This document shows, one piece after another, positions 48,002 through 52,398 of a stretch of DNA of 64,000 nucleotides; position 1 is the first letter of the stretch; each line of letters begins with the position of its first letter. Location: NCBI GenBank assembly GCA_036396655.1, contig DASWKK010000066.1, positions 912 through 64,911 of the forward strand. Direction: 5' to 3'. The position numbers and the translations under genes were made by a program. A model generated the notes under the pieces. It saw only the letters and a list, made by a program, of their open reading frames with translations, had not been told where the DNA came from and ran no database searches. The stretch is from Acidimicrobiia bacterium (GTDB lineage: Bacteria; Actinomycetota; Acidimicrobiia; Spongiisociales; ZC4RG35).

Positions 48002-49303
48002 TCATGCACTACTCAAGCCCAATGGAGCAGGGGTGAATCCGACCACTCCCGCATTCTCCAGAGATCTACCGAAGGCGATGAGACCTGTCTCTGAGCCGAG
48101 CGACCCAATGGCCTGAAGCGAGACCGCGGGTTCACCTGAGCCGGGGACGGGCATGGCGATCGCCGGATGAAGCGAATGGTTGACAACAGCAGAGAACCAG
48201 GAGAGAACAGCTCGATAATGGCGGTCGCCGATCATGTCGTTTCCAATCTCCTTACGCATCGCAGGTGAGGTCGGCGTGATCAACAGGTCGACACGCCGGA
48301 AGGCCTCGGCGAATCGGTCGCGGATCATCCGTTGCCAGTCGATCCCGGCCTCGATCTCCTCGGAGGTGACCCGGGCGCAGTCATCGAGCCTCCTGGCCAC
48401 GTCGTCACCGTACGGCAATTCCTTCGCCCTGAACCCCGCGTGCACCTCGTTTATCTCCCCGGCGATGGCATGGATCAACTGGGGTGCGGGCAAGACGTCC
48501 GGCATCTCGATCTCGCTGACCGAGTGACCCAGGCCACGGAGTGTCTCGATCGCGGCATCGAACCCGACAGCAACCCTTTCTTCCATCGGAGCCCCATCGA
48601 ACCACGGCTGGGGAACCCCCAGCCGGAGCCCGTTCGGGAGCGGCTCGTCCGTCTCGTCGTCGGACATCACCCGGTAGGCGGCGTCGAGGCTCTCGATGGA
48701 GTCGGCGAGCGGGCCTACGGTGTCGATCGAGGCGGCGAGCGGGAAGACTCCGGTCAGCGGAATCCGTCCGTGGGTCACCTTGAGCCCGAAACAGGCGCAG
48801 AGCGCCGCCGGCACCCTGACCGAGCCACCGGTGTCGGTTCCGATGCTCACCGGCGTGATCCCGGCGGCAACCGCGGCAGCCGACCCACCCGACGAGCCAC
48901 CAGGCGAGGTGTTGGGGTCCCACGGGTTGCGCACCGGCCCGTAGTGGGGGTTCTCCGATGAGAAGCCAAAGGCAAACTCGTGCAAACCGGTTCGGCCGAT
49001 GATGACGGCACCGGCGGCCTCGAGCCGGTCGACAACCGGAGCGGACTCGGTGGCCTGCTTGCGGTAGAACGCCGAGCCGGCGGTCGTGGTGCGGTCCGCG
49101 TGATCGATCAGGTCTTTGAGACCGATCGGCATCCCGGCCAGAGGCCCCGCGTACCCACCCGCGGCAATGATGGAATCGAGGTCCAGGGCCCGGGCCAGGG
49201 CACGCTCGTCATCCAGGTAGGTGAATGCGTTCAGGTTGCCCTGAGTGGCGTGGGCTGCATCGAGGGCATCTTGAACTCGGTTGACGGCTGATGCACCGGA
49301 CAC
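48002..49303 (-). CDS. amidase (amidase-signature family)
   Basis: GGSSGGSAAAVAAG signature with Ser-cisSer-Lys triad region. Confidence 0.8.
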   Translation of the reverse strand: MSGASAVNRVQDALDAAHATQGNLNAFTYLDDERALARALDLDSIIAAGGYAGPLAGMPIGLKDLIDHADRTTTAGSAFYRKQATESAPVVDRLEAAGAVIIGRTGLHEFAFGFSSENPHYGPVRNPWDPNTSPGGSSGGSAAAVAAGITPVSIGTDTGGSVRVPAALCACFGLKVTHGRIPLTGVFPLAASIDTVGPLADSIESLDAAYRVMSDDETDEPLPNGLRLGVPQPWFDGAPMEERVAVGFDAAIETLRGLGHSVSEIEMPDVLPAPQLIHAIAGEINEVHAGFRAKELPYGDDVARRLDDCARVTSEEIEAGIDWQRMIRDRFAEAFRRVDLLITPTSPAMRKEIGNDMIGDRHYRAVLSWFSAVVNHSLHPAIAMPVPGSGEPAVSLQAIGSLGSETGLIAFGRSLENAGVVGFTPAPLGLSSA

Positions 49304-49374
49304 GAGAGGCGACCATAGCCAGGACGGCCGGGGTTCTTCGGTTTACCGGTCGTCGCCCAGGCGAGGAAGGCCGG

Positions 49375-50484
49375 TCACTCGAAGGTGAGACCGTTGCCGT
49401 CGGGCACCAGCGAGATCCAGGCCTGACCGGGGGGAACCGGTATCACGTTGCCCGAGTCGTCGGTGAGTACGAACCAATCCTGCTCGGTTTCCCGTTGCCA
49501 GGTCCCGCTCATCACCTTGCCGTCGGCGAAGACGAAGGCCTGTCCGGACCCGGTCGTCTTGCTGCTCGGCAGGCTCTTGCCCCGTCCCGGTGGGGAGTGG
49601 TTGTACTGCTCGGTATAGAGGGCCACCAGGACCGGGAAGGCGATGCGACCTTCTTCACCATCCATGGTTCGCCAGTTCGACTCCTGTCCATCCGCGCTGC
49701 GCAGCCAGGTCTCGGTGGCGGGGTCCCAGTCCCAGTTCACGATGTTGCCGACGAAGTCGATCTCGACGGTGGTCGCCGGCACCGCGGTGGAGGGCAGCTC
49801 GCCAAACTCCCAGATCGGAGCTATCGGAGGCTCGTCGGGATACTCGAGACTGTCGGCGTACTCACGGAGCAGGATCGTGTTGGCGTACAGGTTGTGAGGG
49901 GCGAATCGCCCCGATACCCGGAACGTTTGAGGCCGGACCTCGCCGACCAGGTTCACGTCCATCGACCGGATCAATTGCTGGACCCAGGTCTGAGCGCCGG
50001 AGATGACAAACGTGGGCTGGTTGAGAGCGGTCAGGATGTGGGGGTCGGTCGGTCGGCCGGAACGCATCGGGCCGAAGTACTCGGTGTCGCTCTGCTGCCA
50101 AAGGGTCATGAAGCGGGTGATCCCTTCGACCACGATCTCGAAGACGACGTCGGCTTCCTGGACGCCTGACTGGGGTCGGGCATTCGGATGGTTGTCCATC
50201 TTCACTGCCAGCACTCTCCGGTCGAGTAGCGCCGGGTCATCCACGGGCAAGCCATTGAGAGGGGAGACCGCTTCAGGAATGGTGCTGGATGTTGTTGTTG
50301 AGGTGGTCTCGGCGGAGGTCGTCGTTGTCTCGACAATCGTGGTTGTCGTGGTCTCGAGGGCTTCGGGTGGGTCCTCGGTGGCGAGTGCCATCACCACCCC
50401 CACCGCGGCGACAAGGATGACGCCGATCGTGACCAGCTGTGCGCGTCTCGACTGCCGTAGCAGCTGGATGAATCTCGAAAGCAT
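49375..50484 (-). CDS. DUF3048 domain lipoprotein/secreted protein
   Basis: N-terminal TM/signal, Thr-rich linker, then LAVKMDNHPNARPQSGVQEADVVFE block typical of DUF3048. Confidence 0.6.
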   Translation of the reverse strand: MLSRFIQLLRQSRRAQLVTIGVILVAAVGVVMALATEDPPEALETTTTTIVETTTTSAETTSTTTSSTIPEAVSPLNGLPVDDPALLDRRVLAVKMDNHPNARPQSGVQEADVVFEIVVEGITRFMTLWQQSDTEYFGPMRSGRPTDPHILTALNQPTFVISGAQTWVQQLIRSMDVNLVGEVRPQTFRVSGRFAPHNLYANTILLREYADSLEYPDEPPIAPIWEFGELPSTAVPATTVEIDFVGNIVNWDWDPATETWLRSADGQESNWRTMDGEEGRIAFPVLVALYTEQYNHSPPGRGKSLPSSKTTGSGQAFVFADGKVMSGTWQRETEQDWFVLTDDSGNVIPVPPGQAWISLVPDGNGLTFE

Positions 50485-50551
50485 CGGCGGCAGAGTATCC
50501 GTCCGCTGTTGCTACACCACCTCACGGGTTGTCATGAGGAACCCCGAAGAC

Positions 50552-50953
50552 TCAAACCGAGAGGACCCCGCCCCTGATCGGCAGGTCACTCAGCGCTGAT
50601 TCCGGTTGGTCGATCGAAATGGCGAGCTCGATCCCTTCGGCGTTGGACCGGAGGACGTAGAGGGCGTCGATGTTGACCCCGGCATCGGCCAGCACCCTGG
50701 TCAACCGCGCCAGCTCCCCGGGGACGTGGGGCAGGACCGCGGTGAGCACAGTGTTCTCTTCGCTGTGCAGCGCCGCCTCTTCCAGGACCCGCCTGGTGGT
50801 CGGAGCGTCGTCGACGATGAGGCGAACCGTCCCTTCCCCGTCGTGACCGTAGGCGGCAAGCGCTTCGATGTTGACCCCGAAGGCGGCCAGTGCTTCGGTC
50901 AGTGACGCGAGCCTGCCCGGACGGTTCTCCATCTGGACGACGAACTCGGTCAT
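50552..50953 (-). CDS. ACT domain pair protein (small amino-acid-binding regulator)
   Basis: Two ACT-like halves (FVVQMENRPGRLASLTEALA..., LTAVLPHVPGELARLTRVLA...). Confidence 0.65.
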   Translation of the reverse strand: MTEFVVQMENRPGRLASLTEALAAFGVNIEALAAYGHDGEGTVRLIVDDAPTTRRVLEEAALHSEENTVLTAVLPHVPGELARLTRVLADAGVNIDALYVLRSNAEGIELAISIDQPESALSDLPIRGGVLSV

Positions 50954-50987: not shown

Positions 50988-51929
50988 TCAGGTGCTCGGA
51001 TCGGCCGGCTCGACCCTTCCCCGCCTCATGAGATAGGAGTGCCAGATCACCCGTGCCGCGGCTGCTCGGATGGGTCGCCAGGGCGCGGACAGGAGCTCGA
51101 GCTCTTCCTCGTCCGGCACCGACGACATGCCGAGAACCTCGGCGGCCCCTACCTGGAGGGCGCGATCTCCCACCGGGAAGACATCGGGCAGCCCGAGCGC
51201 CGACAGCAGGTAGGCATCTGCGGTCCACGGCCCGATCCCCTTGATCGCCAGCAGTGCCTGACGTGCTTCGTGGGGTGCCTGCCCTGCCAATCCCGCCAGA
51301 TCCAGCTCGCCGGATCTCACCGCCCGTGCCAACTCCATCAGATAGCCGGCCTTCTGCCGAGTGACGCCGATGCCGCGGAGATCGGCTTCGGTGACCTCAC
51401 TCATCCTCTCGGGATTGATCGTACCGAGAAGGCCGTGAAGTCGTCGGTACATCGCCGCGCCCGACTCGAGAGAGACCTGTTGCTCCAGGATCAACCAGAC
51501 CAGTGTCGGAAATCCCGCCGGCCTGCGCCAGAAGGTGGGTACGCCAAACTCGTCGACTACATCGCGAAATGCCGGTTCCTCCCCAATCAGGAAATGCGCT
51601 GACTCGATGAAGGTGGATTCGTCGAGTCGCTCGACTCGAGGCTCGAGGCTGCCCATCGGAACCGGGCCAAAGGAGGCCGAGTCCTCGACGCCCGCCACAT
51701 GATTGTCGGAAACGACCCAGGCCTGGCCTTCGCCCATGGTGCCCTGCCCGTCGACCCGATCCCCGGGCCCCGCCGCCAGCCGCTTCACCAACCAGAAGTT
51801 GTCGCGTCCCGGGTGGGGGAGAGCCACGACCTCACCTACGAGTGGTGACCGCGACCCGGTGGTGACGAACTCCTCACCGGGGACGAGGGTCGGCCTCATA
51901 GAGTCTTCGACAACACGGAACCTGCGCAT
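50988..51929 (-). CDS. sodX: fusion protein: N-terminal S26-type peptidase domain (NiSOD maturation protease SodX-like) + C-terminal HhH-GPD DNA glycosylase (AlkA-like)
   Basis: N-terminal ~105 aa with SMRPTL (Ser) and WLVKRLAAGPGD (Lys) of signal-peptidase-like fold; C-terminal ~200 aa with HhH motif LLAIKGIGPWTADAYL and catalytic Asp in VFPVGD; single uninterrupted ORF divergent from sodN. Confidence 0.65.
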   Translation of the reverse strand: MRRFRVVEDSMRPTLVPGEEFVTTGSRSPLVGEVVALPHPGRDNFWLVKRLAAGPGDRVDGQGTMGEGQAWVVSDNHVAGVEDSASFGPVPMGSLEPRVERLDESTFIESAHFLIGEEPAFRDVVDEFGVPTFWRRPAGFPTLVWLILEQQVSLESGAAMYRRLHGLLGTINPERMSEVTEADLRGIGVTRQKAGYLMELARAVRSGELDLAGLAGQAPHEARQALLAIKGIGPWTADAYLLSALGLPDVFPVGDRALQVGAAEVLGMSSVPDEEELELLSAPWRPIRAAAARVIWHSYLMRRGRVEPADPST

Positions 51930-51990
51930 GGAAATCGTCCCCGGAGGGTATGGTCGGATGAGTAAATCGACAAAGAACGAAGGAGTGCAA

Positions 51991-52398
51991 ATGCGACAGG
52001 TGATTGTTGCCCATGCCCACTGCGATCTCTTCTGCGGGGTCTACGACCCGGCCCAGGCCAAGATCGAGGCGATGTCGGTGCTCAAGTCGGCCGAGAAGTA
52101 CCAGGGCTCGGACGATGAGGTATTCAGGAGCCGGGCGATCACCATCAAGGAGGAACGCGCCGAACTGGTCAAGCACCACCTGATGGTGCTCTGGGTCGAC
52201 TTCTTCACGGCCGACCATCGCAAGGAGTTCCCCAACCTCGACGATCTCTTCTGGCGTGCCATCCTCCAAGCCGGGAATGCCAAGAAGTCAGTCGATCCCG
52301 AGGACGGGAAGAAGCTGGTTGCCCTGATCGACGAAATCGCCGAGATCTTCTGGCAGACGGAGAAGGCCCAGGGGGCGGGGGTCTACCCGCCTAACTAG
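51991..52398 (+). CDS. sodN: nickel superoxide dismutase precursor
   Basis: Leader MRQVIVAHA followed by Ni-hook HCDLFCGVYDPAQA and conserved NiSOD helices; ATG 51991 with AGGAG upstream; an in-frame ATG at 51958 also possible. Confidence 0.8.
   Translation: MRQVIVAHAHCDLFCGVYDPAQAKIEAMSVLKSAEKYQGSDDEVFRSRAITIKEERAELVKHHLMVLWVDFFTADHRKEFPNLDDLFWRAILQAGNAKKSVDPEDGKKLVALIDEIAEIFWQTEKAQGAGVYPPN

Follow-up and report, generated by a model that had tools for sequence, protein, structure and literature searches.

Why should a single gene encode both a protease that matures nickel superoxide dismutase (NiSOD) and an enzyme that repairs DNA? This question is raised by a stretch of DNA from an Acidimicrobiia bacterium (contig DASWKK010000066.1), in which a preliminary description, made from the letters alone, had placed a SodX-like S26 peptidase and an AlkA-like helix-hairpin-helix (HhH)-GPD glycosylase in one reading frame next to the NiSOD gene sodN. 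We refer to the whole stretch of 64,000 nucleotides as the window, and all coordinates given below are positions in it. We analyzed the gene in question, hereafter the sodX-alkA fusion gene, and can confirm that the fusion exists and is conserved throughout a clade of soil Acidimicrobiia. Its product is probably bifunctional, cleavage of the NiSOD leader and base excision being activities that are independent of each other.

Architecture and conservation of the fusion

The sodX-alkA fusion gene is located at positions 50988–51929 of the minus strand and encodes 313 amino acids (aa) followed by the stop codon, as supported by its open reading frame (ORF), two Pfam domains, full-length homologues and an AlphaFold2 model. 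The ORF opens at the first start codon following a stop, and an N-terminal extension or a membrane anchor is therefore impossible. On the basis of Pfam, the NCBIfam model TIGR02754, the alignment and Foldseek, the N-terminal domain (aa 1–99; 51633–51929, minus strand) was assigned as a minimal soluble S26 Ser/Lys peptidase of the SodX type; the C-terminal domain (aa 100–313; 50991–51632, minus strand) was assigned as a complete short AlkA-type HhH-GPD DNA glycosylase on the basis of Pfam, sequence matches in the PDB and Foldseek. The combination of domains first reported for this frame was thus upheld by Pfam, NCBIfam, PDB, Foldseek and alignments alike, and the motifs that had been quoted for it were located as follows: SMRPTL at aa 10–15 and WLVKRLAAGPGD at aa 46–57 in the peptidase half, and LLAIKGIGPWTADAYL at aa 226–241 and VFPVGD at aa 250–255 in the glycosylase half.

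The structure of the fusion protein, predicted by AlphaFold2 from the family alignment, had a predicted local distance difference test score (pLDDT) of 92.2 and a predicted template modeling score (pTM) of 0.89. According to this model, the two domains would abut without a linker, with neither partner missing any part. The junction was among the well-predicted regions (pLDDT of 95–97 for residues 91–130); here helix one of the glycosylase (residues 104–117) is predicted to follow directly on the final strand of the S26 domain (residues 96–98). Residues V99, D103, F107 and E109 of this junction were invariant in the family alignment.

The preliminary description had considered that a stop codon between two adjacent genes might have been lost. 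Such an artefact or pseudogene, produced by a sequencing error or by a recent stop loss that joined two separate genes, would seem to be favored by short stand-alone versions found in the databases (P0121, P0271, P0105 and P0328). We searched for relatives of the whole protein and obtained 1313 matches, of which the best 120 clusters (clustered at 90% identity) were examined. These exhibited 60–92% identity, were nearly all 303–334 aa in length and carried both Pfam domains in the precomputed annotation, and their source names, where given, were those of Acidimicrobiia metagenome-assembled genomes (MAGs). The database search for the same domain pair, which had been proposed together with the original claim, thus recovered the fusion, with the same length and the same pair of domains, in more than 120 protein clusters. 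We also scanned genomes, using one genome per species, and found 273 genomes with a relative; when the best 80 loci were kept, the fusion was encoded without interruption in every one of them (80/80), and the records were nearly all titled Acidimicrobiia MAGs.

The conservation of individual residues was then compared among the 75 full-length fusion genes. Ser10, Lys49, Asp75, Asp83 and Ser84 of the peptidase half and Gly231, Gly233, Trp235 and Asp255 of the glycosylase half were identical in all of them, and Trp296 was identical in 74. The median ratio of nonsynonymous to synonymous substitution rates (dN/dS, Nei-Gojobori method) was 0.31 for the N-terminal domain and 0.28 for the C-terminal domain, with values of 0.1–0.3 for most of the closely related pairs. 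Both halves are under purifying selection, and the fusion is kept although the N-terminal domain diverges to ~40% identity. Given the recurrence of the fusion in clusters and loci and the selection on both halves, the lost stop codon had to be abandoned as an explanation.

The short versions mentioned above were examined individually. P0121 (145 aa) and P0271 (122 aa) were tried as true split N-terminal domains and rejected, as metG, the ACT-domain gene and the DUF3048 gene are also broken on their contigs. P0105 (249 aa), P0328 (262 aa) and P0343 were tried as glycosylase-only proteins and still retain the tail of the S26 domain, and the 404-aa product of locus L033, tried as a real variant, resulted from a frameshift. 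The apparent stand-alone halves (L081, L082 and L033; P0105, P0328 and P0343) are accordingly frameshift or mis-start artefacts, and it is hardly conceivable that the fusion itself is one.

Several observations were made on the source genomes. The locus in one soil Acidimicrobiia MAG (DATKEA010000017.1) was nearly identical to that of the window. Two sodN/fusion/ACT/DUF3048 loci (L013 and L033) were present on two contigs of the MAG MFD09267.bin.1.163, one of them being the frameshifted locus, which suggests a strain mixture or a duplication in this bin. The fusion-bearing MAG records of L004, L008, L012, L013, L020, L030, L060 and others were titled Acidobacteriota or Gammaproteobacteria; this suggests that the taxonomy labels of these bins are wrong.

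The protease half and its predicted substrate

The N-terminal domain matched Pfam Peptidase_S26 over aa 4–60 (E 9.3e-8; 32.6 bits, cutoff 22.9), and its top match in NCBIfam was TIGR02754, the NiSOD maturation protease, of which model positions 2–88 of 90 were covered. The predicted nucleophile, Ser10 of the SMRPTL box (codon at 51900–51902, minus strand), was at least 90% conserved among stand-alone SodX relatives. The predicted general base, Lys49 of WLVKR (codon at 51783–51785, minus strand), was invariant both in the fusion alignment and in the alignment with the stand-alone relatives. Pfam, residue conservation and fold are consistent in identifying an S26 catalytic core with a Ser/Lys dyad, and the start of the ORF 9 residues ahead of the catalytic Ser is that of a soluble domain, the protein as a whole not being small owing to the fusion.

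We searched the N-terminal domain alone against 1.84 billion representatives. A few fused-clade proteins were followed mostly by proteins of ~95–170 aa, with some longer S26 signal peptidases also among the matches. The N-terminal domain could be aligned end to end with the small stand-alone proteins, and the boxes RRFxVVEDSMRPTL, WLVKR and SDN...DSRxFGPVP were common to both. The gene context was readable for six of the stand-alone relatives (P0279 of Mycobacterium sp. DL592, as well as P0283, P0275, P0274 and P0306, the last in two places); all six are divergent to a Sod_Ni gene and are, by this context, genuine sodX genes.

NiSOD is activated by SodX, its cognate peptidase, which cleaves the preprotein (PMC8346466; PMC3919588). 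Like the SodX proteins of Streptomyces coelicolor (SCO5255) and Prochlorococcus MIT9313, the N-terminal domain is a minimal, soluble and anchorless S26 Ser/Lys peptidase of ~90–100 residues, encoded beside sodN, whose precursor exposes His1 when the leader is removed (PMC3919588, PMC8346466). Unlike them, it is only the first part of a 313-aa protein, scores below the cutoff of TIGR02754, and faces a SodN leader of just 9 residues. With the type I signal peptidases (LepB, SpsB and SipA; MEROPS S26), it shares the core fold, the SM.PTL box, the K-R box and the GDN...DSR box; however, it contains neither a transmembrane anchor nor domain II, and is predicted to be cytoplasmic and apparently specific for a single substrate.

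S24 and S26 peptidases have the Ser/Lys fold in common, and weak matches to Pfam S24 were obtained for some relatives; LexA C-terminal domains also appeared in the Foldseek list. These points would suit an alternative in which the N-terminal domain is a self-cleaving S24 module similar to LexA or UmuD that regulates the glycosylase upon DNA damage, instead of a protease acting on SodN. We therefore compared the folds. The best Foldseek matches of the N-terminal domain modeled alone (pLDDT 92.6) were the type I signal peptidases SipA, SpsB and LepB, with template modeling scores normalized to the query (TMq) of 0.75–0.80, compared with ~0.5 for the LexA C-terminal domains. This better match to the signal-peptidase fold indicates that the domain is S26 and not S24, and SodX was also the best family model. 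In addition, the 9 residues ahead of Ser10 offer no upstream cleavage segment, the junction with the glycosylase contains no Ala-Gly or Ala-X-Ala site, and the linkage to sodN is near-universal. A self-cleaving S24 module is thus very improbable. Neither the PDB sequence search nor the Foldseek search returned a SodX structure, the signal peptidases being the closest to the N-terminal domain.

The adjacent gene sodN (51991–52398, plus strand) encodes a NiSOD precursor of 135 aa (Sod_Ni, E 1.3e-37; TIGR02753, 125 bits, cutoff 90). As the preliminary description had stated, it is divergent from the fusion gene across a gap of 61 bp; this intergenic region (51930–51990), read from the sequence, is common to the two genes. 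The fusion gene of the window is thus encoded next to sodN, as expected for a SodX. Among the 80 kept loci, sodN was divergent and upstream of the fusion gene in 78, usually at a distance of ~55–90 bp, and the remaining two contigs stop inside the fusion gene, ahead of any sodN. The intergenic length, obtained for 56 loci, was 52–70 bp and mostly 56–57 bp.

In the window, the SodN leader MRQVIVAHA (51991–52017, plus strand), which precedes HCDLFCGVYDP, is the predicted substrate of the peptidase. All 78 sodN-bearing loci of the fused clade exhibited the leader M-R-Q-V-T-(V/I)-A-H-A directly before HCDL(Y/F)CGVYDPAQA, and the AHA-HCD junction provides an Ala-X-Ala site immediately ahead of His1, as expected of a leader cleaved by SodX. 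In the mechanism that we propose, the N-terminal 99 residues would act as a soluble SodX that uses Ser10 and Lys49 to remove the 9-residue leader MRQV(I/T)(V/I)AHA from the adjacent SodN, cutting past Ala-X-Ala; this cleavage would free His1, whose free amine is needed by the nickel hook. From the sequence and its context, we infer that the N-terminal domain is the cognate NiSOD maturation protease and that it cuts the neighboring pre-SodN.

The nickel hook itself differed at one position. Position 5 of the hook (window 52018–52050) was Phe or Tyr, as in HCDL[F/Y]CGVYDPAQA, and not the Pro of the classical HCDLPCGVYDP. This position was other than Pro in all 78 sodN loci of the fused clade (Met in one) and in two mycobacterial-type loci, and it was Pro in locus L085.

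The glycosylase half

The C-terminal domain matched Pfam HhH-GPD over aa 144–285 with a score above the gathering threshold (E 5.7e-13; 49.6 bits, cutoff 26.2). Its best sequence matches in the PDB were AlkA2 of Deinococcus radiodurans (2yg8, E 3e-24) and the 3-methyladenine glycosidase of Bacillus halodurans (2h56, E 4e-24), and the structural comparison of the model with 2yg8 by Foldseek (E 1.4e-11) extended over 214 alignment columns on a target of 206 residues. The HhH motif LLAIKGIGPWTADAYL (51207–51254, minus strand) aligns to GIGRWTAEMFLL of 2yg8. The predicted catalytic residue, Asp255 of the GPD loop PDVFPVGD, is encoded at 51165–51167 of the minus strand (atc on the plus strand, corresponding to the codon GAT) and aligns to the Asp of SGD in 2yg8 and of VGD in 2h56. 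The hairpin, the Gly/Pro-rich loop and the Asp are thus found together, as KGIGPWTADAYLLSALGLPDVFPVGD, in the order that defines the HhH-GPD motif.

The comparison with D. radiodurans AlkA2 (DR_2584; PDB 2yg8/2yg9) and B. halodurans 2h56 was informative with respect to the type of glycosylase. All are short HhH-GPD proteins of ~210–230 residues without the extra domain with which E. coli AlkA begins; the alignment pairs their HhH motifs and their Asp residues, and these proteins are the best match in both sequence and structure. However, the identity is only ~30%, and AlkA2 and 2h56 stand alone, whereas the present domain is fused. No AlkA_N domain was detected in the Pfam scan of the fusion protein. 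The original designation as AlkA-like is therefore appropriate in so far as the half is an HhH-GPD glycosylase, but not in the sense of the E. coli AlkA type; the designation should be restricted to the short type represented by D. radiodurans AlkA2, and the half should be filed accordingly as a short AlkA2-type enzyme, not as E. coli AlkA.

In the fusion protein, Trp235 follows the GIGP hairpin, similar to GIGRW in 2yg8. We take this position to be the one occupied by the catalytic Lys in bifunctional HhH enzymes (Nth and OGG1), and by analogy the presence of Trp in place of Lys suggests that the glycosylase half is monofunctional. D. radiodurans AlkA2, in which the N-terminal domain known from E. 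coli AlkA is naturally absent, is active on 3-methyladenine and 7-methylguanine, and also on 1-methyladenine and 3-methylcytosine (PMC5128194). We infer that the glycosylase half is likewise a monofunctional DNA glycosylase of the 3-methyladenine type; in the proposed mechanism, the C-terminal 214 residues would excise bases of this type by means of the HhH motif and Asp255.

Probable independence of the halves, origin and genomic setting

An outgroup locus, L086, has the same synteny: sodN (71% identity), sodX, an ACT-domain gene (62%) and a DUF3048 gene (47%). In L086, sodX stands alone and no glycosylase is encoded there; the 239-aa gene after sodX was tried as a split alkA and rejected, as its product is low-complexity and unrelated to AlkA. 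The same synteny with a stand-alone sodX means that the glycosylase half was either gained in the present clade or lost in the L086 lineage, and also that SodX does not need the glycosylase half. At the stand-alone sodX loci L083–L085 and L087, the downstream genes were unrelated, and adjacent separate sodX and alkA genes were found in none of the genomes examined. When the C-terminal domain alone was searched, the best 120 matches consisted of fused-clade proteins only, without an outgroup. With respect to the annotation of L086 (668–1141), the called start of sodX directly adjoins the start of sodN. The ATG at L086:722 (MRRFRV...), with the motif GACCATAC ahead of it, fits the family alignment better, and the deposited sodX gene call is probably too long.

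We next weighed the proposal of two independent activities against the observations that are unfavorable to it. First, both halves scored under the cutoffs of their equivalog models. The N-terminal domain reached 32.2 bits with TIGR02754, for which the cutoff is 63.25; the other scanned members of the fused clade reached 38–52 bits, and none of six stand-alone relatives in the same scan, which differ from the proteins checked for sodN context, reached the cutoff. The glycosylase half reached 30.3 bits with NF007641, the E. coli AlkA equivalog, for which the cutoff is 229. Second, Schizosaccharomyces pombe Mag2 was among the Foldseek relatives, with template modeling scores normalized to the target (TMt) of 0.85–0.88 and root-mean-square deviations of 1.7–2.0. 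Mag2 is a homologue that binds abasic sites and is not known to have glycosylase activity, and the same fold and the Asp are therefore no proof of catalysis. Third, an L086 SodX that presumably works without a glycosylase would leave the benefit of the fusion unexplained. Finally, the rigid, linker-less interface of the predicted structure, together with conservation in at least 78 species-representative genomes, could reflect a functional coupling of the halves.

The first two points would favor a reading in which one half is non-enzymatic: the glycosylase half could be a Mag2-like, non-catalytic binder of DNA or of abasic sites or a stabilizing scaffold for the tiny protease, or the S26 domain could be a structural stand-in for the N-terminal domain of AlkA. 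The S26 domain does occupy the N-terminal position, where E. coli-type AlkA has the domain that is absent from D. radiodurans AlkA2. However, neither half varies in its catalytic residues among the 75 genes, and the two have equally low dN/dS. The sequence of the glycosylase half is far closer to the active D. radiodurans AlkA2 than to Mag2 (E 3e-24 and 2e-12, respectively). Moreover, the neighbor is always a SodN that has to be cleaved, and no further protease gene is found next to it in these loci. A loss of catalysis in either half is accordingly rather improbable.

The last point corresponds to a different possibility, in which the glycosylase would tether SodX and NiSOD maturation to DNA, or in which the binding of a lesion would allosterically control leader cleavage, so that active NiSOD would arise where DNA is damaged or as a reaction to such damage. 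The absence of a linker, the confident prediction of the inter-domain arrangement (as reflected by the pTM), the invariant junction residues and the retention of the fusion down to the low N-domain identity noted above would all be in agreement with it. In contrast, the stand-alone SodX proteins of L086 and of mycobacteria have no DNA-binding partner and serve SodN proteins that are similar (71% and 65% identity) and have comparable leaders ending in AHA, and tight packing of domains is also usual for simple fusions that have long been stable. We consider such a coupling unlikely, and the more specific proposal that the HhH-GPD domain brings SodX to DNA, or gates cleavage on the binding of a lesion or an abasic site, has a slim chance of being correct. 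If coupling were true, superoxide detoxification would be tied directly to DNA-damage sensing.

We therefore favor the reading in which a single gene of this soil Acidimicrobiia clade provides one rigid two-domain enzyme with separate leader-cleaving and base-excising activities. The fusion would ensure equal output of both halves from the short promoter region that the gene shares with sodN, and superoxide defense (NiSOD and its protease) and base excision repair would thus be expressed together. This arrangement raises the testable question of whether any function is served by linking a protease for metalloenzyme maturation with an enzyme of DNA repair.

Fusions that involve either partner are known. 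The AdaA-AlkA proteins (for example, Mycobacterium tuberculosis Rv1317c and those of several Deinococcus species) provide a precedent for an AlkA glycosylase with another N-terminal domain (PMC6300522), but in them the two domains act in one alkylation-repair pathway, whereas here the N-terminal partner is a metalloenzyme-maturation protease without a known link to DNA repair. In algae that carry a ubiquitin-NiSOD fusion, the N-terminus of NiSOD is generated by ubiquitin processing. This algal protein is likewise a lineage-specific gene fusion around NiSOD (PMC6332867); SodN itself is fused there, whereas in the present clade the protease is fused, to an unrelated enzyme, and SodN retains its bacterial leader. 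A full-text literature search revealed no paper describing a SodX-glycosylase fusion, and a 2008 survey of serine-protease architectures did not cover S26. The claim that the architecture had not been described thus holds for the literature searched, but not for the public databases, which contain hundreds of fusion proteins with both Pfam domains, named 'S26 family signal peptidase' at NCBI and 'DNA-3-methyladenine glycosylase II' at JGI. The fusion is apparently undescribed, and is built of two well-understood modules without a demonstrated new mechanism.

Each of these public names loses half of the function, and gene counts for Acidimicrobiia, both for sodX and for base excision repair, are skewed as a result. 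SodX is the least characterized part of the NiSOD system, and a natural fusion that is predicted to be well folded and occurs in many species would make it easy to obtain a SodX structure and to assay how the leader is recognized. The fusion also provides a clean, synapomorphy-like marker for this clade of uncultured soil Acidimicrobiia.

The intergenic region contains an invariant block of eight nucleotides (51948–51955), which reads GACCATAC on the strand of the fusion gene and GTATGGTC on that of sodN. Of the 80 fused loci, 76 carry the GACCATAC motif, as does the outgroup L086; it is missing from the mycobacterial and other sodN-sodX loci. Judging from its sequence, GTATGGTC, which contains TATGGT, may be the –10 box of sodN or an operator. 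Scans for sigma-70 consensus promoters and for terminators around the locus detected neither a full promoter nor a terminator. In the Rfam scan of the window, two tRNAs alone were detected, both distant from the fusion locus, and no paralogue of either fusion domain was found in the window.

An ACT-domain gene (50552–50953, minus strand; Pfam ACT) lies 34 bp downstream of the fusion gene. It was downstream of the fusion in 76 of the 80 loci and also occurs in the outgroup, and it possibly belongs to one operon with the fusion gene. Further downstream is a DUF3048 gene (49375–50484, minus strand), identified by Pfam DUF3048 and DUF3048_C and by conserved synteny; the ACT-domain and DUF3048 genes are syntenic in nearly all loci. 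Over 48002–50953 of the minus strand, the ACT-domain, DUF3048 and amidase genes trail the fusion gene with gaps of 34–71 bp and without a predicted terminator, and the syntenic ACT-domain and DUF3048 genes may be co-transcribed with it.

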